NCBI GenBank assembly: GCA_021796215.1
Contig: JAJYOK010000011.1
Location: forward strand, 4,747 to 68,746
Origin: Bacteroidota bacterium
GTDB lineage: Bacteria; Bacteroidota; Ignavibacteria; UBA10030; UBA8401
Direction of reading: 5' to 3'
Length of the DNA: 64,000 bases
Below, one piece after another: positions 5,773 through 25,336 of this stretch. The notes under the pieces were generated by a model, which saw only the letters and a program-made list of their open reading frames with translations, had not been told where the DNA came from and made no database searches. Position 1 is the stretch's first letter, and the number at the start of each line of letters is the position of its first letter. Both the position numbers and the translations under genes were made by a program.

Positions 5773-5867
5773 GGCTATTTTTTCTGGATGATTATTGGTA
5801 AACTGCACAGTACGCGCCGCGCGGAAAAAAATCATCAATCCGGCGTACCCGCCATAGATCGGCGCAG

Positions 5868-6389: not shown

Positions 6390-6486
6390 AGCGTTACTCT
6401 TTCTCTATGTACCAATCATGAGACGCGAATTTTATGAACGGGGCGAACGGAAAACTGCTGCCGCTTCTGTTGAAGCCGTGCCTGGG

Positions 6487-7041: not shown

Positions 7042-7118
7042 AATTTATGATTAAGGAAAAAATTGCTTACGAAAAATTTTTCTGTCGGATTACAACGCAA
7101 ACTGCGTTGTCTTCAATG

Positions 7119-9548
7119 TTAGAATCCGCGCCCGAATTGAAAATGAAAGTGCCATCCGGACGGAGTGCCAACACCCTCCGGGTTATCGAAGCCGTAACCG
7201 TAATCGAAGCCAATAAGACCGATCGGGTTGATCATTAAGCGAGCGCCGATTCCAGCCGAACGCCTGAGATCGAATAAATCTGTTGTGCTGACACTACTCC
7301 ACACATTTCCGGCTTCAGCAAATGCAAGAAGATAAATCGGAATTGGATTGAGCGAAACATTAAAGCGAAGTTCAGCCGTTTCCTTTTCCATTACTGTTCC
7401 GGGAAGCACATTCCCGTACACATCTCTCGGACCAATGCTGCGATCATCATATCCCCGCAATTGCGTCGTCGGCAAAATTGAGCCGATGCCAGTTCCTCCC
7501 ATGTAAAAAAACTCTAGCGCCGGAATTTCATTGAGATTTTTCTTGAACTGAAAGATTTCGCCGTACTGCGAACCAAGATAGAGCGCGAATTTGTCACCGT
7601 TGAACAACGGAATATACCAATCAACCGAAAAATTATGTTTCGTGTAGATCGCGTTGCCTGGAAGGAATGGCGGACCGGAAAGCTCTGTCGAAAGAGCAAT
7701 GCTGCTTCCGTCAGACGGGAAGAGCGTATTGTTGACACTGTTCCGTGAGAGCACTTGCGTAAAGCTGTACTGATTCGTTAAACCGACCGCACCATAAATA
7801 GTGTTTGCCGTTTGATTGTCAATCTGCTGAACTCTGATGCTCCAATCACCGCGCGTGTAATCATCGGGCCACTTGAACTGACGGCCAATGCTCACTGTTC
7901 CGCCGGTCTCGCTCAATGAATAAATATAATTTTGCCGTGTATCAAAAAGACTGAACCCTAACGATGTCGGCGTGTCGAACAGCCACGGCTCGCGAAATGA
8001 TATCGAGAAAGTACGGTAGGTACTACCTTCGCCAAACTCCCAGTCGAAATTCAAAATTTGCCCGCCGCCGCCTGACAACGGTCTGTAAAGCGCAAAATTA
8101 TTGAATGTCAATCCGAGCGCACCGGTAAATCCGTACACACCGCTGTACCCGACAGACATATTGAACGTGTCGCTCGATTTTTCTTCGACGTCGTAAATCA
8201 CATCAACCGTTTTATCATCAACAAAACGCGTATCCGGTTTAATCTTTTCCGGGTTGAAATAATTGAGCACTGAAAGCTGTCGAACACTGCGAATGATATT
8301 CGACCGGCTGAAAAAATCTCCCGGGCGCGTGCGCAGTTCACGGCGGATCACTTTCTCTTCTGTCTTCGTATTCCCGCGGATAATTACCTGACCGATGCGG
8401 AATTGATTGCGTTCGCGAACGTGAACCAGAATATCTACGCTGTCCTGCCCGACTTTTGTCTCTTCCGGTTCAAGCGTCGCAGTCAAATATCCGTTATCAA
8501 GATAGAGTGATGCAACGTCTGTTTGGTCTTCGTTACCATGAAGATTTTTGTCAAACTTGTCATAATCATATACATCGCCACGCTGAAAACCAAGCCGCTG
8601 ATTCAGCGCTTCTGTTTTGAAAACGGTATTGCCTTCCCACGTAATGTTGCGGACATAATACTGCGGACCTTCATAGAGGAAAATGCGAATCGTCATATCC
8701 CGTTTATCAGCGGAATAAGAAATAGAATCAGTGAGCATTGCAACATCGCGGTAGCCCTTTTTCTTGTAGAAATCGAGAATTTTCTTCTTGTCGTCGGCGT
8801 ATTTTTTCTTGTCAAATTTTGAACTTTGCCAGAATTTCCACCACACGTGCTCGTGCGTATCGTCCATCTCGCTTCTCAAATCGCTGTCGGAAAATGCTTT
8901 GTTCCCGAAAAATTGGATCGAACCGATTCTGACTTCCGGTCCCTCGTTAATGTTAAATCTCAGAATAACTCTGCCCCGCGCCGATGTGTCCGGGCTTTCA
9001 ACGAGTTCCGGCTTTATGTCTGCTTCCAGATATCCTTCATCATCGTACGCTTTTTTTAGGACGCCGACAAGCCGGCTTATTTCCTGCGGCGAAACAATTT
9101 GCCCTTTCAGCAGATTCACCTTCTTCGTCAAATCCGATTCACTCAACTCATCGTTGCCGGCAAATTCAACTTTTTCAAGACGCGGATTTTCCTTTACGGT
9201 AATCAGCAAATATATTCCATCGCCAACGGTTTTCTCAATCGCAATCTGAATGTCGGAAAAAATCCTGAGATCCCATAACCGGTTGATCGCTGTACGCGTT
9301 TGCTCGCCCGGCACCGTAATTTCTTCACCGATTGTCAGTCCTGTATTAGCGATGATTGCCGCTGTTTCCGCCGATTTATTACCTTCGACAGAAATTCCTA
9401 AAATTTTATACTGCTGAGGCTGTTGAACATCCTGTGCTCGACCATAGGAAAGAAACAACGCTGTGAAAAAAAGAACGGCAAAAATCTGAAGGGGCACGCT
9501 GCCCGCATGCTTAGAGACCTGAAGCACTTTTTGAAAACCTTTCCACAT
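7119..9548 (-). CDS. bamA: outer membrane protein assembly factor BamA
   Basis: About 810 aa with a signal peptide, repeated POTRA-like segments and a C-terminal beta-barrel ending in GRGF. Start taken at MWKGF (9548); alternative MRRHRM start at 9563. Confidence 0.9.
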   Translation of the reverse strand: MWKGFQKVLQVSKHAGSVPLQIFAVLFFTALFLSYGRAQDVQQPQQYKILGISVEGNKSAETAAIIANTGLTIGEEITVPGEQTRTAINRLWDLRIFSDIQIAIEKTVGDGIYLLITVKENPRLEKVEFAGNDELSESDLTKKVNLLKGQIVSPQEISRLVGVLKKAYDDEGYLEADIKPELVESPDTSARGRVILRFNINEGPEVRIGSIQFFGNKAFSDSDLRSEMDDTHEHVWWKFWQSSKFDKKKYADDKKKILDFYKKKGYRDVAMLTDSISYSADKRDMTIRIFLYEGPQYYVRNITWEGNTVFKTEALNQRLGFQRGDVYDYDKFDKNLHGNEDQTDVASLYLDNGYLTATLEPEETKVGQDSVDILVHVRERNQFRIGQVIIRGNTKTEEKVIRRELRTRPGDFFSRSNIIRSVRQLSVLNYFNPEKIKPDTRFVDDKTVDVIYDVEEKSSDTFNMSVGYSGVYGFTGALGLTFNNFALYRPLSGGGGQILNFDWEFGEGSTYRTFSISFREPWLFDTPTSLGFSLFDTRQNYIYSLSETGGTVSIGRQFKWPDDYTRGDWSIRVQQIDNQTANTIYGAVGLTNQYSFTQVLSRNSVNNTLFPSDGSSIALSTELSGPPFLPGNAIYTKHNFSVDWYIPLFNGDKFALYLGSQYGEIFQFKKNLNEIPALEFFYMGGTGIGSILPTTQLRGYDDRSIGPRDVYGNVLPGTVMEKETAELRFNVSLNPIPIYLLAFAEAGNVWSSVSTTDLFDLRRSAGIGARLMINPIGLIGFDYGYGFDNPEGVGTPSGWHFHFQFGRGF

Positions 9549-10353
9549 ACGATGGCGACGCATGTTTCGCTTTCGACTTGACTTGCTCGCTCACCATGCC
9601 GAACCGGCGCTCGCGCCGTTGAAACTCTGCAATGGCTTCATACAACCATCGGCGGCGAAAATCAGGCCAGAGTAAATCACTGATGTACAATTCCGTGTAG
9701 GCGATCTGCCAGAGAAGAAAATTGCTGATGCGTAATTCCCCGCTTGTGCGAATCAACAAATCCGGATCGGGAATATCTTTTGTTGAAAGATACTGAGAGA
9801 TTAACTCGTCACGGATTTCTGAGGGGGCAATTTTCCCGGAATGAACATCGTGAACAATATTTTTTACTGCATTGAGAATATCCCACCGGCCGCTGTAACT
9901 CAAAGCAAGTACAAGCGTCAATCCGGTATTGTGCCGCAACATTTCCATTGCGTCAATCAATTCATCCTGAACATCCTGCGGAAGAGAGGCAATATCGCCG
10001 ATGCATGTGAGCCGCACGTTGTTGCTGTGCAGCCGGTCGCGTTCATCACGGAGTGCTCTCAGAATAAGGCGCATCAATGTAGAGACCTCATCCTTCGGGC
10101 GCCTCCAGTTTTCGGTTGAAAAGGTGTACAGCGTCAAATACTTCACCCCCAGCTCACCGCACGCTTCAACAATGTCTCGCACGGAATTCACACCTTCATG
10201 GTGGCCGGCAACGCGCGGCAATTTCTTTTTCTTTGCCCATCGCCCATTGCCGTCCATAATAATGGCGATATGTTTCGGAATATCTCCGCTCGCCCGAAGC
10301 TGCTCCTGATGTTTTTTATCTTGAGCGGCCGCCGCCGCTGAACCTTTATTCAA
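9511..10353 (-). CDS. uppS: isoprenyl transferase (undecaprenyl-diphosphate synthase)
   Basis: HIAIIMDGNGRWA, FSTENW and RERRFG motifs. Apparent TTG start at 10353 (no in-frame ATG upstream of the conserved core). The C-terminal tail overlaps the bamA start by about 38-53 nt. Confidence 0.88.
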   Translation of the reverse strand: MNKGSAAAAAQDKKHQEQLRASGDIPKHIAIIMDGNGRWAKKKKLPRVAGHHEGVNSVRDIVEACGELGVKYLTLYTFSTENWRRPKDEVSTLMRLILRALRDERDRLHSNNVRLTCIGDIASLPQDVQDELIDAMEMLRHNTGLTLVLALSYSGRWDILNAVKNIVHDVHSGKIAPSEIRDELISQYLSTKDIPDPDLLIRTSGELRISNFLLWQIAYTELYISDLLWPDFRRRWLYEAIAEFQRRERRFGMVSEQVKSKAKHASPSYVERFSKSASGL

Positions 10354-10730
10354 CTAGCTCAACTCCTTACAAATATAATTACCGCCGTTATCGGCGTAGA
10401 TATTAAAGTAACCTTTTAAGTGAAAAAAGTCAAGAAAATAGGCACATTTGAAGAGTTTTTTCATGCTTTCTTCAACAAAAACTGATGGAAAAATACACCG
10501 CCAGCGAATAAAGTCAAAAAATCCACAAAAGAGATTACAAGAGCCAAAAGACTTTCTTTTCCTTCTCGGTCAATTACAGAATTAGACGAACGAAAAGTAA
10601 AAATAGCGACCACAGCGACTATCATTCCGTTTGCTTATTTTAGATTCATCTCGTACACTTAAAGTTGAATCCATTACGCCGTGCTGAACTGACATTACCA
10701 ACATTGATCTTTCTTTCTCAACAAAAAAAA

Positions 10731-11735
10731 GTGAAATTGAAAATCCGCCGTGCTTTATCTTTTGGCGGAACGTGGATACCAATTCTCGCGCTGGTGCTAA
10801 GTTTTTATTCCGGCTGCAGTTTGGATGCGCCACACGACAACCCGTTAGATCCGCTTTCGCCAAAATTTGAGAATGCCGGAACTATCCAAGGAAGGGTCCT
10901 TAGCCTCGGCAGTTCAGGAATCGCAAACGCCGTCGTCAGTTTTACGACCAGCGGTATTGCCGCAATTACGGACAACAACGGAAATTTCTCAGCAGAACAT
11001 GTTTCCGCCGGTACCATGCTCATTACTGTAACAAAAGACGGATTTCTTCCCGACAGCATCTCGCTGCAACTCGCTGCCGGACAAACAACATCGCTCGAAA
11101 TTCATCTCGACGCACTTCCGCAGATTTCTGGACAGCAAATTATTACAAAGAAAACCGACCAATGGTGGCCCGGACCGACATACAGCGCAGTGGTCACTGC
11201 CAATATCACCGATCCTGATGGTCAGACAGACTTTGATACAGCGTTTGTCACTGTAGATTCTCTTCAATTTGGAATGACATATTCCAACAGTGATAAGAAT
11301 TTTCAAACGACAATTCTTGCCGACAGCCTTCCCACAGGCAACCTTCAGTGGCTGATTGGAAAGACGTTAACAGTTTTTGCGAAGGACAAAGAGCGTGCTT
11401 TAACACAGGGTAATGATTTTTACGTCTCAAGAATAATCGAAGCGACTGCAATCCCGACTTCGCCGACAACACAAGACACAGTACGGGATTCATTATATTT
11501 CCAATGGAATCCGCCGTCATTGACTTTTCCCTATACATTCACTATCAATCTTTACATGCTCAACAGCGGGACACCGCTGTGGACAGAATCAAATATCGTT
11601 CCTGCGCCGCCATTCGCGTTTACATTTCCGGGCTTTACCACACTACAGCCAGGCTCATACTATTGGACAGTCGCCGTAATTGATGAATTCGGAAACAGCG
11701 CCCGGTCAAAGGAGGCATCGTTCATCGTACCATGA
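10731..11735 (+). CDS. lipoprotein with carboxypeptidase-regulatory-like (CarbopepD_reg) domain
   Basis: Probable GTG start giving lipobox signal VKLKIRRALSFGGTWIPILALVLSFYSGC. CarbopepD_reg-like segment GTIQGRVL...ITDNNGNF...GTMLITVTKDGF. Stop overlaps the EBP start (ATGA). Confidence 0.5.
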   Translation: MKLKIRRALSFGGTWIPILALVLSFYSGCSLDAPHDNPLDPLSPKFENAGTIQGRVLSLGSSGIANAVVSFTTSGIAAITDNNGNFSAEHVSAGTMLITVTKDGFLPDSISLQLAAGQTTSLEIHLDALPQISGQQIITKKTDQWWPGPTYSAVVTANITDPDGQTDFDTAFVTVDSLQFGMTYSNSDKNFQTTILADSLPTGNLQWLIGKTLTVFAKDKERALTQGNDFYVSRIIEATAIPTSPTTQDTVRDSLYFQWNPPSLTFPYTFTINLYMLNSGTPLWTESNIVPAPPFAFTFPGFTTLQPGSYYWTVAVIDEFGNSARSKEASFIVP

Positions 11736-13231
11736 AAAAAACAGAAGAACACCCTGCAGTGCAAGATTCATTCGACGCATTGTATAACATCACGCAGAGC
11801 ATCAATTCCATTCTTGATCCGGAAGAATTGCTCGACAAGGTGCTCGAAATCGCAATGGAGCATCTTGATGCCGAGCGCGGTCTGATTCTGCTTAATAACA
11901 TCGAAAGCGAATTGGGATTCGACGTTGTCACCGCGAAGAACTTCACCGATACACATTCTTCCAGCAAACTTGCTGCGTCTTCTTCCGTCGTCAAGAAAGT
12001 ACTCTCTTCAGGCGAACCGGTGCTGACGTTCGATGCGCTTTCGGATGAACGATTCGAAGCGTCGCGCAGCATCGTTGCCCAGAAAATTCTTTCCATCATT
12101 TGCGTGCCGCTTCGGCAGATGGAACGGACCACCGGTGCACTGTATCTTGACACAACAAAAGCCCGCGGAAAATTCACGCAAGAAACTTTGAAATTTCTCG
12201 CAATCTTCGGACACCTTGCCGGTATCGCCATTGATAATGCGCGACGATACGATTCACTGCGTAAAGAAAACGAGCGGCTGAAAAATGAAGTCGGCTCCGC
12301 AACACTGCACGGCGAATTGATCGGACGAAGCAAAACATGGAAGGCAACGCTCGACCTCGTTATGCGCGTTGTTGATACCGACGCGTCCGTTCTTATCACC
12401 GGAGAAAGCGGCACTGGAAAAGAATTGATTGCCCGCGCAATCCATTTCAGCGGCAGACGGAAAGATAAACCGTTCATGGCAGTGAATTGTTCGGCAATTC
12501 CCGAACAGCTTCTCGAAAGTGAATTGTTCGGTTACAAAAAAGGCGCCTTCACCGGCGCGAGTGCGGATAAAATCGGACTGATCGAATATGCAAATGGCGG
12601 AACGCTTTTTCTTGATGAAGTCGGCGACCTCCCGGCTTCACTTCAGGCAAAGCTCCTGCGCGTGATTCAGGAGCGAGAAATCCGGCGAGTAGGCGATGTT
12701 CAGGATCGAAAAGTGGATGTAAGAATTGTTACTGCAACGAACAGGGATTTGGATGTAGAAATTAAAGAAGGAAAATTTCGCGACGACTTATATTTCCGGC
12801 TGAACGTCATCAGTATTCCGCTTGCTCCGCTGCGGGAACGCAAAGAAGATATTCCGCTTCTTGCACGTTATTTTATGGAGAAGGCTTCAACGGCACACAA
12901 ACGGCTGGTCAAGAACATCACGGCTGAAGCAATGGAAAAGTTGCTGAAACACCCGTGGCACGGCAACGCGCGCGAACTGCAAAATGTGATGGAGCGGGCT
13001 GTTGTGTTGTCGCGAGGCGAAGAGATTACGGAAGAAGATCTTCATCTTCAACTATTGACGGAAGAAGATCTTGTGCAAAGCGGTTTAACACTGGAAGAAT
13101 TCGAGCGGAAGCTCGTTGAGAAAACTCTTGTCGAGATGAACGATAATAGAACAAAAACAGCGGAGAAGTTAGGCGTTTCACTCCGCTGGCTGCAATATCG
13201 CCTGAAAGAATGGCATCGTGACACAAAATAA
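11732..13231 (+). CDS. sigma-54-dependent transcriptional activator (GAF domain, AAA+ sigma54-interaction domain, Fis-type HTH)
   Basis: GESGTGKE Walker A, ESELFGYKKGAFTGA (GAFTGA loop), arginine fingers, C-terminal HTH TKTAEKLGVSLRWLQYRL. N-terminal GAF-like domain. Confidence 0.9.
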   Translation: MKKTEEHPAVQDSFDALYNITQSINSILDPEELLDKVLEIAMEHLDAERGLILLNNIESELGFDVVTAKNFTDTHSSSKLAASSSVVKKVLSSGEPVLTFDALSDERFEASRSIVAQKILSIICVPLRQMERTTGALYLDTTKARGKFTQETLKFLAIFGHLAGIAIDNARRYDSLRKENERLKNEVGSATLHGELIGRSKTWKATLDLVMRVVDTDASVLITGESGTGKELIARAIHFSGRRKDKPFMAVNCSAIPEQLLESELFGYKKGAFTGASADKIGLIEYANGGTLFLDEVGDLPASLQAKLLRVIQEREIRRVGDVQDRKVDVRIVTATNRDLDVEIKEGKFRDDLYFRLNVISIPLAPLRERKEDIPLLARYFMEKASTAHKRLVKNITAEAMEKLLKHPWHGNARELQNVMERAVVLSRGEEITEEDLHLQLLTEEDLVQSGLTLEEFERKLVEKTLVEMNDNRTKTAEKLGVSLRWLQYRLKEWHRDTK

Positions 13232-14771
13232 TTTTACCATCATCGAAAAACTGAGCGAGGGACCGACTGCCATTGTTTTCAAGGCGCGGCAAAACGCACT
13301 TGAGCGGATCGTTCTGTTAAAAATGCTGCAACCGCATCTTGTGAAGGACAACGATGCCGCCGCGCGATTCATGCGCGAAGCGAAGGCGTGCGCCATATTG
13401 AAGTCGGAAAACATCGTGCAGGTATACGATGTGGCAGAATTTGAAAACTTACCTGCGATTGTTATGGAATTTGTAGACGGCACTCCGCTCGATGAGTTGT
13501 TGAAAACGCACGGTTCATTCGATGAAGCATTCTTACGGAAGACGGCGCAAGAAGTTCTCATTGCACTTGAAAATGCCCATGCGAACGGTGTGATTCATCG
13601 GGATATTAAGCCGGCAAATATTATTCTTTCAGACCGAAACATAATCAAAGTCACCGATTTCGGCATTGCCGCAGTGGCAAGCTCACCATCGTTGACGACT
13701 GAAGGAAATCTGATGGGAACGCCCGCGTATATGTCACCGGAGCAAGCGCGCGGAGAAACTGTTGACGAGCGGACCGATTTCTTTTCGCTCGGAGTTACGC
13801 TCATCGAACTTGCAACCGGTGAAAAAATCTTCGGCGGAAATTCGTACGCAGAATGCCTTCACAAAATTCTCGGCTTTGATGGAAAGCTTCCGGAACATTT
13901 CATGCCGAATACCTCTGTCAACTTCAAAACGTTTCTCTCAAAACTGATCACGCCAAATAAAGAGCATCGTTATACCACAGCAGCCGATGCACTGCAAGGA
14001 ATTTCTGGCACGAACACTCCCGCCTCCCAATCGAACGGAAAGCCGGTGAGATCGTATCGTAAAACTGCGATTCTTACATCAATTGCTGTTATCGCGATGG
14101 CAGCAGTAACAATTTTCTTTTCGAACCATCGAAAACAAACTGACAACGATTCGCCGACTGCCCATCCGGCAGCAGCGGCTTCGCAGAACAAAACAATCAA
14201 TACCGGCGAATCAAGCGAGCAAAAAAACGATTCGCCAAAAAATAATTTGCAGCCGTCAACTACACTGGATCATTTCCCTCAGCAATTGGAAATAAAAGAA
14301 AGTCCGGCTGTAAGCACGGCAGTTCCCATCGTAAAATCGGATTCCGGTTATCTTGCAATCACGTGCACGCCGTGGGGAAAAGTTTTTATTGACAGTCAAT
14401 ATATTGAAACGACGCCGATTGCCGGTACGGTCAGAGTGAGAAGCGGAACTCACGTTGTGACTTTTGTGAATCCCGATTTTGTTCCAATGATGAAAACGAT
14501 CACAATCAAAAAGAATACCCAAACTGCCGTGGATGCAAACTTTCTCGACAAAGCGGGTTATCTGTTTATCACGGCAGACCCTTGGGCAGACGTTTACATT
14601 GATGATCAGCACAGAGATACGACGCCGCTTTCTCACCCGATCATTACGTCAGCCGGTACGAGAAAAATTCGCTTACACAATCCGGCATTTAAGGACTATG
14701 AAACGATCATTACAGTGACCGCTCATGATACAGTGAAACTTAACTATTCTTTTGTTGTGGCGAAAAATTAG
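13218..14771 (+). CDS. serine/threonine protein kinase with TM segment and two C-terminal PEGA domains
   Basis: HRDIKPANI, DFG, SPE kinase motifs. TM helix AILTSIAVIAMAAVTIFF. Two PEGA-like repeats (CTPWGKVFIDSQ / ADPWADVYIDDQ). GTG start at 13218 overlaps the EBP stop by 14 nt. Confidence 0.85.
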   Translation: MTQNNFTIIEKLSEGPTAIVFKARQNALERIVLLKMLQPHLVKDNDAAARFMREAKACAILKSENIVQVYDVAEFENLPAIVMEFVDGTPLDELLKTHGSFDEAFLRKTAQEVLIALENAHANGVIHRDIKPANIILSDRNIIKVTDFGIAAVASSPSLTTEGNLMGTPAYMSPEQARGETVDERTDFFSLGVTLIELATGEKIFGGNSYAECLHKILGFDGKLPEHFMPNTSVNFKTFLSKLITPNKEHRYTTAADALQGISGTNTPASQSNGKPVRSYRKTAILTSIAVIAMAAVTIFFSNHRKQTDNDSPTAHPAAAASQNKTINTGESSEQKNDSPKNNLQPSTTLDHFPQQLEIKESPAVSTAVPIVKSDSGYLAITCTPWGKVFIDSQYIETTPIAGTVRVRSGTHVVTFVNPDFVPMMKTITIKKNTQTAVDANFLDKAGYLFITADPWADVYIDDQHRDTTPLSHPIITSAGTRKIRLHNPAFKDYETIITVTAHDTVKLNYSFVVAKN

Positions 14772-14808
14772 TTTTTCGGCACGAAGATTGTAGCATAATA
14801 TAGATAGA

Positions 14809-16113
14809 ATGAAAAAGAAAAAATCCATAGTGAACATTTTGGAACTTCCGGTCAGCATTCTTCTCCTGACATTTCTGCTGGTTTTACCTGTGTTTTCGCA
14901 GGTAAATGAGCAATTGTTCATGCCAACTCCTCGCTTCGGCATGTGTTCCGCACAGCTTGGAGATGTTATTTATCTTATCGGCGGAAGCACTAGTATAAGT
15001 GGTGAAAGCGAAGATGAAGTGCAAAATCTGCAGGTTTCTTCTGTGGTTGAAGCATTCAATCTGGATAGCTTGGTATGGTACACCAACATAGCGCATCTTA
15101 ACACTGCACGATTTTTTGCATGCAGCGCAGTCGCTGACAGCCAAATTTACGTGATGGGTGGAATGGATTCGAACGGTCATGCACTGAATTCTGTTGAAAG
15201 ATATGATCCGGTGCAAAATAAGTGGTCGTTCGTCGCATCAATGACCCAGTCCCGCCAAGGTGCGGCAGCCGTGACCGTAGGCGATTCAATTTATGTTTTC
15301 GGCGGCGCAAGTCATGGAAATTTGTTAGACGATGTTGAAGTGTATTCTGTTACAAACAATACGTGGACTATTCATCCTCAGATGATGACAGCACGCGCTT
15401 TCCATTTCGTTTTTCGTTATCGGAATATGATTTACATTATCGGTGGACTGAATCTGCTCGGTCCGTTGAAAGCGATTGAGCGTTACCCGCTGAATGGCAA
15501 TATGAACATGGGGTCGCTTTCGATGTATACTGCGCGAGTCAAATTCGGTGCTTTAGTCGTTCAAGACAGCCTGTTATTCATTATTTCCGGTATTGGCCCA
15601 ACAGGTGCGATCAGAGATGCCGAAGAGTTTCATGCAGATCGCGAAGCAACAACATTTGCTTCTTCAGTTTCAACAAACCTGCATTCTGCACGATTCGCAT
15701 TTATTGCAGCGATGGGAGCTAACAACAATACAATTTATCTTTTTGGCGGCTTATCACCTGATTATAAAAGCGGAAGCGCACCTGTTCCAGTTGTTGATCA
15801 AGTTTCTGCTGTCACTTCTGTCCCGAAATCTGATCCTCTAAATCCTATTAAATTTAGTATGAATCAAAATTTTCCAAACCCATTCAATCCGTCAACGAGA
15901 ATCACATTCGAAACGACGCAGGAAAATGAGCCGGTCAGATTGTCCGTCTTTAATATGATTGGGCAGGAGATACAAGTCCTTGTTGACAATCCGTTGCCGC
16001 GTGGCGAACACACAATCGAATTTAGCGGAAGCGAATTGCCAAGCGGAATTTATTTCTACCAACTCAGTTCTCCCGAAGGAACGTTGACGAAAAGGATGGT
16101 ATTGCTGAAATGA
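14809..16113 (+). CDS. Kelch-repeat protein with T9SS C-terminal sorting domain
   Basis: Signal peptide. Repeated IYxxGG/W Kelch blades. C-terminal NFPNPFNPST...GIYFYQLSS...MVLLK Por-secretion tail. Confidence 0.8.
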   Translation: MKKKKSIVNILELPVSILLLTFLLVLPVFSQVNEQLFMPTPRFGMCSAQLGDVIYLIGGSTSISGESEDEVQNLQVSSVVEAFNLDSLVWYTNIAHLNTARFFACSAVADSQIYVMGGMDSNGHALNSVERYDPVQNKWSFVASMTQSRQGAAAVTVGDSIYVFGGASHGNLLDDVEVYSVTNNTWTIHPQMMTARAFHFVFRYRNMIYIIGGLNLLGPLKAIERYPLNGNMNMGSLSMYTARVKFGALVVQDSLLFIISGIGPTGAIRDAEEFHADREATTFASSVSTNLHSARFAFIAAMGANNNTIYLFGGLSPDYKSGSAPVPVVDQVSAVTSVPKSDPLNPIKFSMNQNFPNPFNPSTRITFETTQENEPVRLSVFNMIGQEIQVLVDNPLPRGEHTIEFSGSELPSGIYFYQLSSPEGTLTKRMVLLK

Positions 16114-16886
16114 GTCTCACAGCACGAAGAACACTCGTAGTGCTGTTATTCATTTTCCTCAATCATGCGTACGGTCAAGTACCGGCGGCGCAAGATTCAA
16201 CTTTGCGTGCCATTGATACTCTTTTCACAAACGGGTCATATCTTTCTTCCGAACTTGAAGCGCGGCGTTTATTAGAAACTCCCGTCATCAGCGATTCTGT
16301 CAAAGCACAAGCGGAAAAGTACATCGCCTTTTCACTTGTTGCACAAGGGCAAAACGAAGCCGCGACTGAACATTTCATTTCTGCAATGAAATTGGATCCG
16401 GGATTTTCTCTCGATCCTGTTCTTACCTCTCCTAAAATTATGTCCGTTTACCGCGATGCGCGAGAACAATTCCGCATTCAACAATTGCAGCGACCGCCAA
16501 AAAATGAAAAGTCTATGCACGAAGAAGGCGGCGGACCAACATTGCGCGCTTTGATTTTCCCGGGATGGGAACAGATCTATCAAGGCAAAAGTGCGAAAGG
16601 ATATGTGCTGCTGGGAGCCGGTGTGATTTCGCTGGCTTCAACTTTGTATTTCGACCAGGTGCGAAAGGATAAACGTTCAAGTTATCTTGCCGCCGCCACG
16701 CCCGTAGAAGCTTCGGCACGTTATTCAAATTATAATTCAGCTTATAAAGCTGAATACTATTCTGCCGCTATCTTTGGAATTATTTACGTTTACTCAACCC
16801 TCGATGCATTTATTCCGCTTCCTCCTCAGTTTGATCTTTCCATTTCACCCTTCTCTTCCTCCCTTTCATTCAGCTATTCATGGTAA
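16110..16886 (+). CDS. DUF5683-like membrane protein (signal peptide, TPR-like N-region, two TM helices)
   Basis: ATGA overlap with the Kelch gene. C-terminal module LIFPGWEQIYQGK...LDAFIP is paralogous to the ORF at 57165-57797 (IPGAGQIYNG...LDAYVDA). Confidence 0.5.
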   Translation: MSLTARRTLVVLLFIFLNHAYGQVPAAQDSTLRAIDTLFTNGSYLSSELEARRLLETPVISDSVKAQAEKYIAFSLVAQGQNEAATEHFISAMKLDPGFSLDPVLTSPKIMSVYRDAREQFRIQQLQRPPKNEKSMHEEGGGPTLRALIFPGWEQIYQGKSAKGYVLLGAGVISLASTLYFDQVRKDKRSSYLAAATPVEASARYSNYNSAYKAEYYSAAIFGIIYVYSTLDAFIPLPPQFDLSISPFSSSLSFSYSW

Positions 16887-16907
16887 CGCGCAAAAGATGC
16901 GTGCTAT

Positions 16908-16924
16908 TCTGCAAGTCCTGCAGA
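16908..16924 (+). promoter_or_regulatory. 17-bp palindrome TCTGCAAGtCCTGCAGA, candidate EBP enhancer (UAS)
   Basis: 7/8 inverted repeat centred on 16916, 64-80 nt upstream of the sigma54 -24 element. Confidence 0.35.
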
Positions 16925-16986
16925 GATTTTCACATTGAATTTTCAAAAAAAACTCTAGGCGATTGAAATATAACGGATTATGCTTT

Positions 16987-17001
16987 TGGCACGGAGCTTG
17001 C
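16987..17001 (+). promoter_or_regulatory. sigma-54 (RpoN) promoter, -24/-12 elements
   Basis: TGGCACGgagcTTGC matches the consensus TGGCACG-N4-TTGCW exactly in both conserved dinucleotides (GG 16988-16989, GC 17000-17001) and spacing. About 52 nt upstream of the ATG at 17054, which has a good SD (AAGGAGA). Confidence 0.65.
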
Positions 17002-17053
17002 GGTTACTTACCCTAGTAACTAACATATCAAACATTATAAGGAGAGAAAAATC

Positions 17054-19399
17054 ATGAAAAGAAAGTTACTTGCAGTTGTCTCGACTACGGTACTTGCACT
17101 TCTGGTGGGCGTTGCCGCGGCATCAGCTCAAATGCATCCGGATTTCTTTTTGAATGCAAAACTTCAGTCCGATGGACATGTAAATTTGGAGTGGACTGCG
17201 CCAACAGGCGTGACTGTAAATTCATACATCGTGTATCGTGCAGATCTTGCCGTACCATACATGTCAGCAATGCCTGTCAACTTTGTTGCGATAGACACGA
17301 CACACGACACAAGTTACAGTGATTTTCCGCATTCCAGCTTTAGCGACTCGGCTTTCTTTGCGTATTATGTTTCCGCTCAAATAGATAGCGGAATGTCGTT
17401 ACGAAGTAATGTCGCAGTAATTAATAACTCAAGCTACGGCGGAGGAGAAGAAGATCACATAACGATCACCTCAACTCCAGTAACAAGCGGACAAATCGGT
17501 GTTGAATATACATATCAAGTCGTCGCACATTCTTCTGATTCTACTGCCACGCTTATGTATCGCCTTGACGATCATCCCTCCGGAATGAATATTGATTCCA
17601 CAGGATTCATTACATGGACGCCGATGCAACACGGCTGGTATGAAGTTGAAGTAGAAGTCAAATCAGACAAAGGCGGAGAAGCAGGGCAGCATTTCATGAT
17701 TCGTGTCGGTGCCGGCAATGGTACTGTTGCAGGAACAATTACAGATTCTTTAGGCAATCCGATTCGCCATGTGATGGTACAGCTCTTTCAACGCACACAA
17801 AATGAGCCTTTCGAATATTCTGCCATTACCGATTCCATCGGAACATACTCGGTTGACAAACTTGACTCGGGCACATATTTCGCCCGCGCGATTCCTCTTC
17901 GTTACGACTATTTACCGCAATGGTACAATGGCGCACAAAGTCGTACCGATGCCACACCAATCAACGTCGCTGATAATGCAACAACGACCGTCAACTTTAC
18001 ATTACAGGCGCGGGCAGCCGTTCTTCCGACATTCACCGTGCAAGGAATGGTTACCGATTCAGCAAACGCAGCAATCTCGAACGCGGCAGTATTTTTTGTG
18101 AGCGCAGGATTCGCATTAAATTCTCATGGAGACATCAGTAATCTTCATTGGTTCGACCGCGGAGACATTCAGGAAATGTTCGAGCACCATAACGAGGACA
18201 GCAGTAGGGATCATGATTTCAGCCTGGAAGGAAACTCGCGCTTCGTAACAAAAGCTAACGTCGACGCTTCCGGCAAATATTCCGCCACATTAACTCAAGG
18301 CTCGTATATTGCTTTTGCAGTTGCACCGGGTTACCAGCGGGTATTCTTCAACGGACAAAGCGATCCTCTTTCAGCAAATGTGATTGTGGTGAATTCAGAC
18401 ACAGCGGGAATCAATTTTGTCATGGCACCAAATCCGCCGCTCGTGCTCGGACAAATTAACGGATCGGTAATTGATTCCACAACCGGCACCGGAGCTGCTG
18501 CACGCATCATTGCGTATCGCGACCGCTGGACACATCCGGATACGATTATGGCGCCGCACACATTCTCCACAGATGCAGATTCAACCGGCAATTATTCATT
18601 GGCTGATTTGCCGCCGGGAGATTACATCGTCTTTGCAGTGCCGCTCGGCAATTATGTTCCGTCGTTCTACAGCACATCCGGGTCAACGCTTCACTGGAAG
18701 AATGCAACAAAAGTAACAGTCAACGGAACGACCGTCGCCGGAATCAACATCTATGTAAAGCCGCTGGTGAATCCTGCTCTCGGCTACACATCGGTGTATG
18801 GACAAATAACTGTCAACATCAACGCATCAGCGAGTTTGCAAAAAGCCGATGTGACCGCCGCTCTTTCAGGCGGAGTTGTGTACGCTCTCGATGCGAACGG
18901 TAATGTTGCAGGATACGGTTTTACAACATCAACAGGCAGTTACACGATTGTTGACCTTGCGCCGGGCACCTATACGGTCTCGACAGAAGCGCCGGGTTAC
19001 GACTCCGGCTCTTCCACAGCATCGCCAACATACGATGCGTCCGGAAATCCGCAGCCGGCAAACGCTTCCTACAGCGTGAATTCTCTTACGTTGGTCGGCA
19101 ATAACAACGGGCTGCAACCGAGCGGTTACGCGCTTGAACAAAATTATCCGAATCCGTTCAACCCGTCAACGCAAATTGTGTTCAGCATTCCGCAAGATCA
19201 ACGTGTAACGATAGCAGTTTTCAACATTCTCGGACAAAAAGTTGCCACGCTTCTTGATCGCACGCTCAGAGCAGGAACACATGTTGTGACATGGGCTGGC
19301 AAAGATGACAACGGATTTACTGCCCCATCCGGTGTCTATCTTTATAGAATTTCGACAGCAAACTTTACGGCAGTAAAAAAGATGATGCTGTTGAAGTAA
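17054..19399 (+). CDS. large secreted T9SS cargo protein with multiple CarbopepD_reg/Ig-like domains and C-terminal sorting domain
   Basis: 781 aa. Signal peptide (LLVGVAAASAQ). Repeated GxVxD..G.P..A.V...TDs.GtY modules. C-terminal NYPNPFNPSTQIVF...GVYLYRIST...MMLLK. Confidence 0.8.
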   Translation: MKRKLLAVVSTTVLALLVGVAAASAQMHPDFFLNAKLQSDGHVNLEWTAPTGVTVNSYIVYRADLAVPYMSAMPVNFVAIDTTHDTSYSDFPHSSFSDSAFFAYYVSAQIDSGMSLRSNVAVINNSSYGGGEEDHITITSTPVTSGQIGVEYTYQVVAHSSDSTATLMYRLDDHPSGMNIDSTGFITWTPMQHGWYEVEVEVKSDKGGEAGQHFMIRVGAGNGTVAGTITDSLGNPIRHVMVQLFQRTQNEPFEYSAITDSIGTYSVDKLDSGTYFARAIPLRYDYLPQWYNGAQSRTDATPINVADNATTTVNFTLQARAAVLPTFTVQGMVTDSANAAISNAAVFFVSAGFALNSHGDISNLHWFDRGDIQEMFEHHNEDSSRDHDFSLEGNSRFVTKANVDASGKYSATLTQGSYIAFAVAPGYQRVFFNGQSDPLSANVIVVNSDTAGINFVMAPNPPLVLGQINGSVIDSTTGTGAAARIIAYRDRWTHPDTIMAPHTFSTDADSTGNYSLADLPPGDYIVFAVPLGNYVPSFYSTSGSTLHWKNATKVTVNGTTVAGINIYVKPLVNPALGYTSVYGQITVNINASASLQKADVTAALSGGVVYALDANGNVAGYGFTTSTGSYTIVDLAPGTYTVSTEAPGYDSGSSTASPTYDASGNPQPANASYSVNSLTLVGNNNGLQPSGYALEQNYPNPFNPSTQIVFSIPQDQRVTIAVFNILGQKVATLLDRTLRAGTHVVTWAGKDDNGFTAPSGVYLYRISTANFTAVKKMMLLK

Positions 19400-19429
19400 C
19401 AAAAATTGGGGGGCGTTTCCAAAATCAGG

Positions 19430-19469
19430 CAAGGGACGTGCATGGATAGTGCACGCCCCTTGTTCTGTA
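19430..19469 (+). terminator. hairpin after the T9SS cargo gene (13-bp stem, 1 mismatch, 7-nt loop) followed by a weak U-tract
   Basis: CAAGGGACGTGCA-tggatag-TGCACGCCCCTTG then ttctgtat. Lies between the 17054 gene and the small OMP gene. Confidence 0.45.
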
Positions 19470-19487
19470 TAAGAAAGGAGAAAAACG

Positions 19488-20021
19488 ATGACACGATCAA
19501 CATTAAAAACCCGCCATATTTTATCTTTGAGCGGAAAAATATTCGCGCTCTTCATCTTCTGCGTCGCACTAGCCTCCGCACAAGACCGCGGGGTCGGCGT
19601 CGGTATCATTGTCGGCGAGCCGACAGGCATCAGCACGAAAATCTGGACATCGCAGACGAATGCCGTTGATATCGGAATTGGATGGTCGAGCGGAGACCAT
19701 TACTTGGTACGGATGGGAAACGGGTACTGGCAGTACGTGAACGACACGTACGTCCATTTCTATGCAGATTATCTCTGGCATTCATTCAATGCCATCCGGT
19801 CACAGGAACGCTTTCCGTTATACTACGGCGTCGGTATGACAATCCACAGCGGACAAATGTCGCCGTACAATTGGCTTGGAGTGCGGGGAACATTCGGCAT
19901 CGAATGGATGCCGCACCGCACGCCGATGGATGTATTTTTTGAAATCTCACCGACATTGCAGCTTGCCCCTTTCAGCACTTTCGGCTTCAATGCCGGACTC
20001 GGCACACGATTCTATTTTTAA
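19488..20021 (+). CDS. small outer-membrane beta-barrel protein (hypothetical)
   Basis: 177 aa. Signal peptide (IFALFIFCVALASAQ). Alternating aromatic/Gly-rich strands. C-terminal ...GLGTRFYF. Confidence 0.5.
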   Translation: MTRSTLKTRHILSLSGKIFALFIFCVALASAQDRGVGVGIIVGEPTGISTKIWTSQTNAVDIGIGWSSGDHYLVRMGNGYWQYVNDTYVHFYADYLWHSFNAIRSQERFPLYYGVGMTIHSGQMSPYNWLGVRGTFGIEWMPHRTPMDVFFEISPTLQLAPFSTFGFNAGLGTRFYF

Positions 20022-20043
20022 AGATGGATCAATGTACATACAG

Positions 20044-20075
20044 GCGGCGTGATTAAGAACGCCGCCTTTTTTATT
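20044..20075 (+). terminator. rho-independent terminator
   Basis: GGCGGCG-tgattaaga-CGCCGCC followed by TTTTTTATTTC. Confidence 0.7.
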
Positions 20076-20167
20076 TCTTCCCGTAAAGATGTTGCATCTC
20101 CCTTAATTTATTTTTAACTTTTGCAGTCCTACACTAACGAGCCGACTTTAAAACCTCCGGAGGGATT

Positions 20168-21880
20168 ATGTATCATATCCTCGTTCGATTCAACGCTCTG
20201 CTCATCGTGCTTGCAAGTTTCAATTCGCTCTATGCACAATCTTCAGCGATGCCTTATTTGAATCTCCCACGCGGCATTTACTCGTATAGCATTGGGAAGC
20301 AGGGTGTCACATCGCGCGACCCGGTGGACGCCATGCTCTACAATCCGGCAAATCTCGTTTTCGCTGCAAAACCGCAGCTAACCTTCAACAGACAGCCGGC
20401 ATTTATTCCGAACACATGGTTTTCTTCTTTATCGGCTTCAATGGATGTACCGGAGACCGGCTACTTTGGTTTTGAATATACAAATTACGATTTAGGCGAA
20501 TTCGTTCAGACATCCGATCAAGGACCTCAAGTGATTGCTACTTTCCATTCTTATGAGCAAGCATTTTCACTTGCGTACGCACGAAAATTTTCAAATGCAT
20601 TTTCCGCAGGTATTCAATTTCGTTATGCACTCGACCATTTTCCATCAATAGGAACAGCCTCTTCTTCTGGAATTGCTAACTATCCTGCATATTTGTTCAG
20701 CGGCGGTGTACGGTACGATCCTGTTGCTCTCAGGGATCGCTTTTCTTTCGGATATGCTTTGACGAATTTTGGCACAACTATCACTTACGGAGACCCTTCA
20801 CAAGCAGACCCTCCCCCCGCTCAAATGAATCTCGGAATTTCCGGCGACGCAATTAAAAATGAATTCATTACTATGACGCTTTCCATCGCCGCATCAAAAC
20901 CAGTTAATTACAGAGCATGGAATCCCGCCACCCAAACGCACGAAGCGGAATCTTCTTTCAAAGCATTCTTCGACGATTGGCAGCACACGCCGGACGATAT
21001 TGATTTTCATAGCGGACTTTCCTTTTCGTGGAATCCGATTTCGCTGGGAAATGGCTTCTCATATTTTCAGTCTATGTATCTCGGCGAAATTTCAGGCGGA
21101 TCGTATTATGGACTTGCAGACCAATTTACGCACGGCGCTGAAATAGGCCTAAGCTGGAATGATATACAACTTGCACTTGGTTATGCCGGAACGTGGCATT
21201 ATGTTAATCAGGAAGACGCCGCGTCTTTTAGAGCGTTTATGTCGCTGCCGCAGGAAGATGTGCAGCTTTCACTCAGTGCGCCGCTTTCATCATTCCAACG
21301 GGAAAAAAATACCAGTATACAGCCGCCTAAACTTTCACGAATTATTCTTTCAGCCGGAGTGACACGCATGATACGCTTCGGACATTTCCATACTTCTGAG
21401 TCTTATGGTGCCGGTCAGTATTTCCCTAACACTTACGGCTACGGAATCGAAGCGGCATTTTATGTTACGAAAACTTCCGCACTTGTCTCATCCTTTTCGT
21501 ACACACAAATGGATGATGAAGTTTACTATCTCGGCAATAATGGGAAGCGGTATACAAACTTCACTGCACAGATAGACAACCTCTCTTTCGCATCGTCATA
21601 TCGAAATTATCCGCTCACAGCGTTCTTTCCGTTTTTCTATGAAGTCGGTCTGGGAATTACACGGTGGGAAAGCAGGAAAGAAAAAATGATCCCAAAGTAT
21701 TATTATAAGACCTTTGCCTGTGGAGGAATCGGTGCGCTCGTAAAGATAATAAACAACGTTGAGCTGATTCCTAAGGTGGGATTCCAAAGCACACTTATGC
21801 CCGTTACCGGAAATGCACCGCGCATCGGCGGCTACAATCAGTGGAATTTTTCTCTCAACGCCGGCTACAGTTTTGAATGA
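20168..21880 (+). CDS. outer-membrane beta-barrel protein (hypothetical; signal peptide)
   Basis: 570 aa. Signal LLIVLASFNSLYAQ. Tyr/Gly-rich amphipathic strands throughout, ends ...NAGYSFE. SD GGAGGG present. Confidence 0.5.
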   Translation: MYHILVRFNALLIVLASFNSLYAQSSAMPYLNLPRGIYSYSIGKQGVTSRDPVDAMLYNPANLVFAAKPQLTFNRQPAFIPNTWFSSLSASMDVPETGYFGFEYTNYDLGEFVQTSDQGPQVIATFHSYEQAFSLAYARKFSNAFSAGIQFRYALDHFPSIGTASSSGIANYPAYLFSGGVRYDPVALRDRFSFGYALTNFGTTITYGDPSQADPPPAQMNLGISGDAIKNEFITMTLSIAASKPVNYRAWNPATQTHEAESSFKAFFDDWQHTPDDIDFHSGLSFSWNPISLGNGFSYFQSMYLGEISGGSYYGLADQFTHGAEIGLSWNDIQLALGYAGTWHYVNQEDAASFRAFMSLPQEDVQLSLSAPLSSFQREKNTSIQPPKLSRIILSAGVTRMIRFGHFHTSESYGAGQYFPNTYGYGIEAAFYVTKTSALVSSFSYTQMDDEVYYLGNNGKRYTNFTAQIDNLSFASSYRNYPLTAFFPFFYEVGLGITRWESRKEKMIPKYYYKTFACGGIGALVKIINNVELIPKVGFQSTLMPVTGNAPRIGGYNQWNFSLNAGYSFE

Positions 21881-23157: not shown

Positions 23158-23205
23158 CTGAAGTTACGCAAAATGATATCTTTGTCGGTCAAACCGAGTT
23201 TCGTC

Positions 23206-23266
23206 ATTCCCGCCCACCTGCCAAAGCGAAGCGGCGGACAGGCGAAGGCGGGAATCCATGTTTTTT
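23206..23266 (+). terminator. terminator-like hairpin with U-tract
   Basis: ATTCCCGCC...GGCGGGAAT 9-bp stem (long 32-nt loop) followed by TTTTTT at 23261-23266, about 50 nt after the oxidoreductase stop. Confidence 0.45.
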
Positions 23267-23281
23267 AGTGTAAATTCCATA

Positions 23282-23316
23282 AATAGATTCCCGACAAAAA
23301 CATTCGGGAATAACAT
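23282..23316. repeat. conserved 33-nt intergenic hairpin element, copy 2
   Basis: AGATTCCCGACAAAAACATTCGGGAATAAC. Lies about 117 nt downstream of the minus-strand gene ending at 23433. Confidence 0.55.
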
Positions 23317-23432
23317 TTTCTTGTTTTGCGGAATTTCATACAATTACCAATTACCGTACGATGATAACGGTAATTGGTAGTTGTTCATTGACAATTTGCG
23401 TTAAAGGCTCACGCCTGTGGCTGAACTCGTTG

Positions 23433-25022: not shown

Positions 25023-25336
25023 ACAACCTCCTGTAAAATTATGAATAAGGGATAACACAAACTTTGTTCGTTGGGAAATAAGAAATTACTGTTACTGGAA
25101 TAATTTCATAAATAATCAGAATTTTCGAATTGCAGGTGTTTATCGAAGGTTGCGGAAATTTATTTCGTGCGGCTGTGATGCAGGGCAAACATTAGTCCCA
25201 CCCATCGAAAAACTTATTCAACACGTCCTTTGCTGCTTCTCTTACTCCTATAAAGCAATTATTAATTGCAATATACACTTTTTCGGATTGTGTGCAAATG
25301 GGATGTATTCTCAGCGGATGAAATGATTCTACGTTC

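Follow-up and report, generated by a model that had tools for sequence, protein, structure and literature searches.

We report a gene cassette found in a 64,000-nt stretch of DNA (the window, to which all unprefixed coordinates refer) from a Bacteroidota bacterium (Ignavibacteria; UBA10030; UBA8401), positions 4,747 to 68,746 of contig JAJYOK010000011.1 in assembly GCA_021796215.1. The cassette encodes a lipoprotein, an enhancer-binding protein (EBP), a Ser/Thr kinase (STK) and a small membrane protein, and is followed by a gene for a large type IX secretion system (T9SS) cargo protein; it is real, widespread and previously undescribed. We put at roughly 0.6 the probability that this cassette is a sigma-54 switch for genes of T9SS-exported surface proteins, with the kinase as its likely input. 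Its parts in the window are as follows.

10731..11735, plus strand: lipoprotein with a CarboxypepD_reg domain (48.6 bits), the first gene of the cassette
11732..13231, plus strand: EBP, composed of GAF, Sigma54_activat (PF00158, 243 bits), AAA_lid_14 and HTH_8 (31.9 bits)
13218..14771, plus strand: STK, with Pkinase (169.6 bits) and two PEGA domains (55.3 bits), GTG start
14777..14791, plus strand: P_kelch, a second sigma-54-type -24/-12 box, CGGCACGAAGATTGT, 5 nt past the STK stop
14809..16113, plus strand: Kelch propeller (Kelch_1, 131.6 bits) with a signal peptide and a type A T9SS C-terminal domain (CTD; TIGR04183, 39.8 bits)
15020..15032, no strand: single dyad TGCAAAATCTGCA within the Kelch open reading frame (ORF), a candidate EBP site about 230 nt downstream of P_kelch
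16110..16886, plus strand: 258-residue membrane protein (M258) with a TPR domain, remotely DUF5683-like; no Pfam match at E up to 0.01
16889..16922, no strand: paired dyad, a putative upstream activating sequence (UAS), CGCAAAAGATGCG at 16889-16901 and TGCAAGTCCTGCA at 16910-16922, the only pair in the window
16987..17001, plus strand: P_cargo, a putative sigma-54 promoter, TGGCACGGAGCTTGC, 53 nt before the cargo ATG
17054..19399, plus strand: 781-residue T9SS cargo with three CarboxypepD_reg domains, He_PIG, SdrD_B and a Por_Secre_tail/TIGR04183 CTD

The ORFs lie where a preliminary description of this DNA had placed them, the GTG start of the STK falling 14 nt within the EBP frame. That description saw five genes chained by overlaps. 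Three overlaps are present, of 4 nt between lipoprotein and EBP, 14 nt between EBP and STK and 4 nt between Kelch and M258; the STK stop (14771) and the Kelch start (14809) are separated by 37 nt that hold a sigma-54-type box. Most of what had been recorded is borne out; the second box and the dyad inside the Kelch gene had been overlooked. The start of the lipoprotein gene is ambiguous (TTG 10665, GTG 10731 or TTG 10737), and the cargo ATG at 17054 is preceded by the Shine-Dalgarno sequence AAGGAGAG.

The gene order is conserved. Three homologues of M258 read in their contexts belong to the same series of lipoprotein, EBP, STK, optionally Kelch, M258, a gap and a CTD protein of 770-790 residues, set among unrelated flanks. 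A scan of one genome per species with an alignment of the M258 family then gave 80 loci, Kryptoniota-like and Ignavibacteria-like, which were scored by tblastn with the window proteins. Where upstream DNA sufficed, lipoprotein, EBP and STK follow one another in 55 of 57 loci; where downstream DNA sufficed, a cargo homologue lies on that side in 64 of 65; and the complete set of lipoprotein, EBP, STK, M258 and cargo is present in 48 of 51 fully covered loci. The comparison of gene order in relatives, which had been set in advance, was therefore positive. Flanking genes vary between the cassette loci. More distant members were found by searching with the lipoprotein, down to 24% identity, and reading the contexts of the matches:

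L086, candidate division KSB1: lipoprotein, EBP, PEGA-bearing STK, Kelch, DUF5683 protein, a 201-residue gene, CarboxypepD_reg CTD protein
L087 and L088: cassette, then a Peptidase_S8 protein with CTD
L089, a Zixibacteria metagenome-assembled genome (MAG): cassette with Kelch, then a 509-residue CTD protein
L090: lipoprotein, EBP and STK only, without M258 or cargo; one dyad and, by eye, a degenerate second upstream of the lipoprotein gene

The DNA elements travel with the genes. The KSB1 locus has a sigma-54 box 4 nt past the STK stop, and its dyad pair is followed 41 nt on by TGGCACGATAATTGA; dyad pair and box also occur in L087 and L088 (41 and 43 nt), and in the Zixibacteria locus the sole two sigma-54-like matches and the sole dyad pair in 19 kb stand at the predicted places. 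Across these four loci the cassette persists together with its DNA sites, whereas the cargo differs, though it has a T9SS CTD every time; this gives our best evidence that the module controls T9SS cargo genes, and the KSB1, Zixibacteria, L087 and L088 loci with their different CTD cargoes lend the strongest support to the earlier proposal that the regulators are wired to such genes. The cassette spans several lineages of the Fibrobacteres-Chlorobi-Bacteroidetes (FCB) group. Of the lineage-specific secretion-control circuit that had been suggested, the circuit is thus supported and the restriction to one lineage is not; moreover, the control concerns the transcription of cargo genes, not secretion, and the conserved module contains no T9SS machinery gene.

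The near-consensus sigma-54 promoter noted earlier before the 781-residue cargo gene is the sole exact TGGCAC-N5-TTGC match in the 64 kb, where 0.16 would be expected. Since at least one match also occurs in 14 of 100 shuffles, the match taken alone is suggestive and not decisive. It has GG at -24 and GC at -12 with 10 nt between them, is directed towards the gene and places the predicted transcription start site (TSS) near 17013. Aligning the cargo gaps of related loci on their best sigma-54-like box exposed a fixed layout: about 10 nt past the M258 stop come two dyads TGCA-N5-TGCA (variants YGCR-N5-YGCR), then an A/T-rich spacer and then TGGYAY-N5-TTG. Among the 66 best sites there is no variation in the GG or in the G of TTG, and the two T's are kept in 97-98%. 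The box lies 87-140 nt past the M258 stop in most related loci, and a weighted box score of at least 17 is reached in 62% of the gaps vs 4.8% of random windows from the same loci. Under a relaxed lineage consensus the window holds seven matches, only two of which are intergenic; these are P_kelch and P_cargo, and both face the next gene.

Paired dyads are almost confined to this place. No farther than 100 nt from the M258 stop, 82% of loci have two or more loose dyads vs 0 of 800 control windows, and among 70 paired dyads in 1.29 Mb of related loci, 69 fall in the gap between M258 and cargo, spread over 68 of 76 loci. Their starts are 20-21 bp apart across loci (21 bp in the window). Between the second dyad and the -24 box, spacer lengths group at 49-54 bp (mode 52) and 58-65 bp (mode 63), with 41-43 bp in L086, L087 and L088 and 64 bp in the window. 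These steps of one helical turn suggest a face-of-helix requirement, and such spacing would be expected if the DNA loops so that an activator on its enhancer meets a closed sigma-54 complex.

A second such unit is probably present in the window's clade. The sequence yGGCAC-N5-TTG(C/T/A) stands 0-5 nt past the STK stop in 23 of 24 Kelch-containing loci, the window included, and in the remaining locus, L032, a similar box lies about 70 nt past the stop. The -12 dinucleotide of P_kelch in the window is GT, so that it has the features of a sigma-54 promoter in part, and its predicted TSS is near 14803. Within the Kelch ORF, at +209 to +249 past the STK stop, a YGCA-N5-TGCR dyad occurs in all 24 loci scanned. 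In 23 of the 24 it shares one reading frame and encodes x-Q-x-(L/M/V)-(Q/H/R). Third positions of its codons are fixed, with G closing codon 1 in 23 of 23 loci (every one of the 15 Ala codons is GCG) and NTG serving as the L/M/V codon in 23 of 23. Such fixed synonymous sites argue for selection on the DNA itself. Taking P_kelch and the intragenic dyad together, we consider it probable that the Kelch and M258 genes make up another sigma-54 unit whose enhancer lies downstream. The Kelch gene is found in 24 of 79 loci scored (two fetched earlier included), all of them in the window's Kryptoniota-like clade, as well as in L086 and L089; the Ignavibacteria-like clade lacks it. Where it is missing (55 loci), the M258 gene in most cases abuts or overlaps the end of the STK gene. 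The Kelch gene and the box in front of it appear to be ancestral and to have been lost in the Ignavibacteria-like clade.

Transcription of the cassette itself seems to be arranged otherwise. In Kryptoniota-like relatives a conserved sigma-70-type promoter, TTGATT-N17-TAAACT, precedes the lipoprotein gene, and no dyads were found upstream of that gene in 59 main-clade loci tested, so we rejected autoregulation of the cassette through the same paired site for the main clade. Single TGCA-N5-TGCA dyads do lie upstream of the lipoprotein gene at L086:8914-8926 (KSB1) and L090:4492-4504, which suggests cassette autoregulation there. Seven Ignavibacteria-like loci (L036, L046, L050, L057, L066, L067 and L084) share conserved DNA about 100-250 nt upstream of the lipoprotein gene, cgcagtatggatgt...aaaggatacaaa...ctgnttgac, which by eye may be the 3' end of a gene for an OmpR-like winged-helix regulator.

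Some cargo transcripts would also carry long leaders. The predicted sigma-54 transcript of Ignavibacteria-like loci (L036, L041, L044-L046, L050, L057, L059-L063, L066, L067, L070 and L084; for example L045:5701-5860) opens with the motif GTCGTTCT, which is conserved, and a structured leader spanning 105-137 nt. This contains a long hairpin that keeps its pairing although the stem sequence varies and that has the loop GGTTCTGTCC in one subgroup; a second G+C-rich hairpin, often with a U-run, comes after it, ahead of the cargo start codon. Leaders of about 255 nt with a terminator-like hairpin and T-run precede the S8-protease cargo genes at L087:14262-14514 and L088:14306-14561. RNAalifold on a plain MAFFT alignment of the leaders gave four pairs only, single-sequence folds being more informative, and Rfam had no match in window 10000-23500 or in four leader-bearing loci. 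The Ignavibacteria-like leader may be an attenuator or riboswitch-like, and extra control at the level of the leader may be common in the module.

Of the two regulators, the EBP is the best-conserved protein of the module, with a median identity of 62% (the others are at about 40-44%) and 45-50% in the distant loci L086-L090 (KSB1, Zixibacteria and three further loci). Its AAA+ sigma-54 interaction domain has the Walker A motif (GESGTGKE), the GAFTGA loop (KGAFTGA) and the Walker B motif (LFLDE) that define bacterial EBPs, all conserved in 62 orthologues. The architecture is NifA-like, yet the protein scores below the NifA equivalog TIGR01817 (398.8 bits vs a cut-off of 528.85). Its helix-turn-helix (HTH) segment LGVSLRWL(Q/H)Y(R/K)L is retained even in L086-L090, conserved across distant lineages in step with the dyad, and binding to the paired dyad is predicted from this HTH_8 domain and from the co-occurrence of the pair with the EBP gene in those same 68 of 76 loci. 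We infer with high confidence from these sequence features that the EBP would bind the dyads and activate sigma-54 holoenzyme at the cargo promoter and, in the window's clade, at the Kelch promoter.

The STK is a Hanks-type (PknB-like) kinase, with the motifs HRDIKPANI, DFG, SLTTEG and GTPAYMSPE in the window. A cytoplasmic kinase domain is followed by one transmembrane segment (about residues 283-303) and two C-terminal PEGA domains that are predicted to be periplasmic. Across 68 orthologues, conservation reaches at least 95% for K35, E54, HRDIKPxN, DFG, the activation-loop Thr and GTPAYxxPE, and the five distant loci keep them as well. PknB (1mru) is the best PDB match and aligns with the STK at the catalytic motifs; the kinase is predicted to be active. 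It falls short of the Stk1/PknB PASTA kinase family NF033483 (261.7 bits, cut-off 450, over residues 3-317, that is, the kinase and adjoining linker), its ectodomain consisting of two PEGA and not PASTA domains.

EBP and STK genes are tightly coupled. In 47 of 66 loci their frames abut or share up to 16 nt: the overlap is 14 nt in 26, 8 nt in eight, 16 or 13 nt in three and 0-4 nt in ten. Larger gaps arise from an inserted, selfish-looking 127-residue ORF or from duplication of the EBP, and the pair was never split in the loci examined. The inserted ORF (127-131 residues, MxENEIAKIxVDVAxxLH...GLLINFG) is present in highly similar copies at L036:8040-8423, L045:2814-3197, L059:8037-8420, L067:8079-8462, L049:1412-1795 and L062:7879-8274, where it breaks the EBP/STK overlap; it may be a small GxxExxY-type gene of a selfish or mobile kind. 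At L050:1376-2851 a full-length EBP copy lies between the EBP tblastn match and the STK, and looks like a tandem duplication. Given the conserved translational coupling, a pair that is never split and the usual logic of membrane sensor plus soluble activator, we hold with moderate confidence that the STK is the sensory input acting on the EBP. The conserved S-[ST]-[ST] cluster in the GAF domain of the EBP (S83-S85), kept in the distant loci, is a candidate target of the kinase.

The lipobox Cys of the lipoprotein is residue 29 of the translation from 10731; it is invariant in a 29-sequence alignment and kept in at least 90% of 60 orthologues. A structural model (predicted local distance difference test, pLDDT, 88) has three beta-sandwich domains, a transthyretin-like CarboxypepD_reg followed by two Ig/FN3-like ones, and no enzyme fold. 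The preliminary description had the cargo built of the same domain type as the lipoprotein, and CarboxypepD_reg is indeed in both; the likeness goes no further, and a cargo paralogue was ruled out (BLASTP E = 0.10). Kelch and cargo proteins have N-termini that are signal-peptide-like in translation and both score above the cut-off for a T9SS type A CTD (TIGR04183, 39.8 and 44.9 bits vs 23). The Kelch protein, which carries a Por_Secre_tail, thereby agrees with the earlier view of it as a T9SS cargo. Its CTD is not unusually conserved, as that of a signalling ligand would be (0.44 vs 0.43 for the propeller). The cargo consists of a signal peptide, an FN3-like N-terminal domain, a He_PIG Ig domain, three CarboxypepD_reg domains, an SdrD_B/CnaB-like domain and the CTD; the domain search gave adhesin-like beta-sandwich domains only, and no enzyme domain.

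M258 comprises a signal or anchor helix, a TPR region (30-127), a disordered linker, an FPGWEQ motif, a helical hairpin (162-234) and a C-terminal beta-hairpin. Its AlphaFold2 model has a pLDDT of 80.5, and a fold search of PDB returned generic TPR matches alone. The family has 389 matches, with relatives labelled Bacteroidota, Candidatus Kryptonia/Kryptoniota or Ignavibacteriales. It had been called DUF5683-like. The match to DUF5683 (PF18935) has E = 0.036 and 14.5 bits, below the Pfam gathering threshold of 26.7; of 24 family members, 11 match weakly (E 0.0071 or weaker), and an unmarked DUF5683 match is on record for the positional orthologue in KSB1, so the relation is best regarded as a remote similarity at the sequence level. 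From the domain content of the lipoprotein, the STK ectodomain and M258, three of the four cassette proteins therefore expose protein-binding domains to the periplasm. Lipoprotein, Kelch and M258 (10731-16886) jointly hold the CRD, beta-propeller and TPR domain types of PorE, a likeness by domain type alone.

Gene content, synteny, the conserved DNA elements with their geometry and the intact catalytic motifs are observations; from them we suggest that these parts would work together as follows. Lipoprotein, EBP and STK would form one operon, which in most lineages would include M258. EBP dimers would bind the two TGCA-N5-TGCA dyads, two helical turns apart and directly after the cassette, at sites roughly 100-125 bp upstream of the predicted cargo start, and by ATP-driven remodelling would open sigma-54 holoenzyme at TGGYAY-N5-TTG, so that the cargo gene and, in the window, probably the gene for a 177-residue protein after it are transcribed. 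In the window's clade, KSB1 and Zixibacteria, P_kelch would drive the Kelch-CTD and M258 genes as a second unit, the intragenic dyad being the likely enhancer. Input would most likely come from the STK. A cue from the envelope or related to cargo would be perceived by its periplasmic PEGA domains, perhaps in concert with the lipoprotein and the TPR protein, and phosphorylation of the EBP by the kinase would then relieve a GAF-mediated inhibition. By analogy with PorA and PorY, a periplasmic CTD-bearing protein could be that cue, which is speculative.

Several observations weigh against this scheme. The canonical C at -12 is present in only 47% of the 66 best sites and is T in P_kelch, a departure from the canonical GC. 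The leader predicted from P_kelch measures only about 6 nt, and no dyads lie within 260 nt upstream of that box. The triad in L090, which lacks M258 and cargo, indicates that lipoprotein, EBP and STK can serve other outputs. On the side of the input, Hanks kinases are known to be linked to EBPs by the FHA domain; the EBP here has GAF as its N-terminal domain and no FHA match in the domain search, and the Gly-rich loop of the STK is degenerate (SEGPTA). The GAF domain could itself be the sensor. A search for the RpoN box RRT[VI][AST]KYR in six frames of the window and 85 loci found none, which is uninformative as the genomes are incomplete. Finally, the genomes all come from uncultured organisms, and the circuit is read from their sequences.

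The question of the input is where another explanation fares best: the EBP might drive the cargo gene in response to a cytoplasmic GAF ligand, with the STK merely co-expressed and acting on M258, T9SS components or envelope enzymes. We consider this possible, though not probable. GAF is a ligand sensor in NifA, NorR and FhlA, Hanks kinases usually have several substrates, and the lack of an FHA match in the EBP points the same way. The isolated GAF domain of the EBP finds its best PDB matches in the cGMP-binding GAF domains of phosphodiesterase 5 (PDE5; E = 5.5e-11); the NKFDE positions, judged by eye on the PDE5 GAF alignment, are not kept, however, and we rejected a cyclic-nucleotide-binding GAF. 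Mere co-expression also sits poorly with a start-stop overlap between EBP and STK that is conserved over the sampled lineages, with a pair never found apart and with a combination of dedicated membrane sensor and soluble activator that is the usual logic of signalling pairs.

The locus might instead serve mainly for assembly. Lipoprotein, Kelch and the TPR/DUF5683 protein would then be assembly or anchoring factors for a secreted beta-sandwich protein, and the regulators would set the expression level only. The transthyretin-like or Ig-like beta-sandwich folds shared by lipoprotein, STK ectodomain and cargo fit this idea, as do the placing of Kelch and M258 behind a sigma-54 box, like the cargo, and domain types that match those given for PorE (TPR + WD40 + CRD + OmpA_C; PMC12773672). 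Factors specific to one cargo are nevertheless hard to square with L087 and L088, which keep the cassette though an S8 protease replaces the cargo, and Kelch is dispensable in 55 loci; we regard this explanation as improbable. That the sigma-54 match is a chance neighbour of the regulators, with some other activator driving the cargo gene, is scarcely credible, for weak as one exact 10-base match in 64 kb is alone, the box, dyads and gene order are conserved in position in about 80 species and in distant lineages, and the comparative data already contradict it.

A bolder version of the sigma-54 switch can be drawn from the same parts. A Hanks receptor kinase would replace the histidine kinase as the dedicated transmembrane input of an EBP, acting through GAF S83-S85; PEGA, lipoprotein and TPR/DUF5683 protein would monitor periplasmic CTD cargo, with the Kelch-CTD protein as a PorA-like ligand; and cargo output would be fed back to T9SS export capacity, in an ancient circuit of Kryptoniota-like, Ignavibacteria-like, KSB1 and Zixibacteria lineages. 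In this full form we find it doubtful.

The literature searched held no description of the cassette, nor of control of T9SS cargo by sigma-54 and an EBP or by a Hanks kinase, in keeping with the earlier statement that the arrangement is undescribed for T9SS. Its DNA side is closest to the NtrC/NifA-type promoters (glnAp2 with tandem NtrC sites; nif with a NifA UAS), which likewise combine a GAF-AAA+-HTH_8 activator and its GAFTGA loop with two same-face dimer sites about 100 bp upstream of a -24/-12 promoter, in helical phasing. The cassette differs in its site, TGCA-N5-TGCA and not TGT-N10-ACA, in the poorly conserved C at -12, in a Hanks kinase as partner where those systems have NifL or a histidine kinase, and in having a T9SS cargo gene as target. 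VasH-type EBPs encoded inside type VI secretion clusters activate sigma-54 promoters of the secreted Hcp/VgrG genes and so provide a precedent for an activator that adjoins secretion substrates switched on via sigma-54; here, by contrast, the substrates are T9SS CTD cargoes, the phylogenetic group is another and a receptor kinase is added. Receptor Ser/Thr kinases of the PknB/StkP/PrkC type phosphorylate transcription factors and share with the STK a PknB-like domain, an activation-loop Thr, a single transmembrane segment and an extracytoplasmic repeat-domain sensor; the STK has PEGA in place of PASTA, its presumed substrate is the EBP of the overlapping gene, and no partner phosphatase was seen in the module. 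In Myxococcus xanthus, FHA-domain EBPs are reportedly thought (Jelsbak et al., in 2005) to be coupled to Ser/Thr kinases, which would likewise have Hanks kinases feeding sigma-54 activators, but the cassette EBP has GAF and no FHA, and its gene forms a translationally coupled, conserved pair with that of the kinase.

The closest parallel on the side of secretion is PorXY-SigP of Porphyromonas gingivalis, which resembles the cassette as dedicated T9SS-tied signalling with a membrane sensor that has a periplasmic part. The domain search found no histidine kinase, PorX-type response regulator or extracytoplasmic function (ECF) sigma factor among the module proteins, unlike PorXY-SigP, and the output of the cassette is sigma-54 transcription of cargo genes rather than T9SS machinery genes. 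In PorXY-SigP the sensor kinase PorY has as its periplasmic ligand the CTD of PorA, a T9SS cargo (PMC12152298), which hints at a possible role for the co-encoded Kelch-CTD protein. More generally, a broad comparative study tied sigma-54 to the bacterial exterior, found GAF in about 10% of EBPs and reported histidine kinases, not Ser/Thr kinases, in EBP gene neighbourhoods (PMC3162934).

Beyond the cargo gene, the window continues with features that are less widely shared.

19430..19462, plus strand: 13-bp G+C-rich hairpin, then TTCTGTAT, between the cargo gene and the 177-residue gene
19488..20021, plus strand: 177-residue protein with a signal peptide and the C-terminus ...RFYF, 3' of the cargo gene
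20042..20067, plus strand: intrinsic-terminator-like hairpin of 9 bp (7 G-C) with a T-run, after the 177-residue gene

The last hairpin, recorded before as a strong terminator, would close the cargo transcription unit, with which the 177-residue gene is probably co-transcribed. The hairpin at 19430-19462 may be a partial terminator or an mRNA-stabilising element, and might set the ratio of cargo to 177-residue product. The 177-residue protein has no Pfam or NCBIfam match; it may be a small outer-membrane protein, as had been supposed, yet it does not belong to the module, since tblastn over the related loci found homologues of its gene only in L006 and L007. A gene of the PorV/PorQ family (20168-21880; NF033709, 111 bits vs a cut-off of 90) comes directly next, the one T9SS component looked for. 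Its product has 570 residues, the family match spanning only the first 340 or so (model length 326), and is 35% identical in the closest relative vs 73-90% for the module proteins there. The 177-residue, PorV/PorQ and HI0933-like genes are common only to the two closest relatives and so lie outside the conserved module. On the other side, divergent from the module, an outer-membrane biogenesis cluster (3269-10353, minus strand; lpxC/fabZ fusion, lpxD, skp/OmpH, bamA and uppS) is not kept in other loci. A further protein with CarboxypepD_reg and a Por_Secre_tail CTD is encoded at 23433-25058 on the minus strand, convergent with the neighbourhood of the module, and neither a sigma-54 box nor a dyad was found near its gene.

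To the best of our knowledge, regulation of the T9SS is known essentially from PorXY-SigP in Porphyromonas and its close relatives, and we know of nothing comparable for the large uncultured lineages of the FCB group. The cassette gives several of these lineages a concrete predicted circuit, in which the activator, its binding site, two promoters and the outputs are defined. If the scheme is true, a Hanks kinase would be the dedicated partner of an EBP, a pairing known only indirectly through the FHA-domain EBPs. The cis-elements are short and precisely placed, so that the circuit could be rebuilt in E. coli despite its uncultured hosts, and the signature of site plus promoter is usable for regulon prediction in MAGs.

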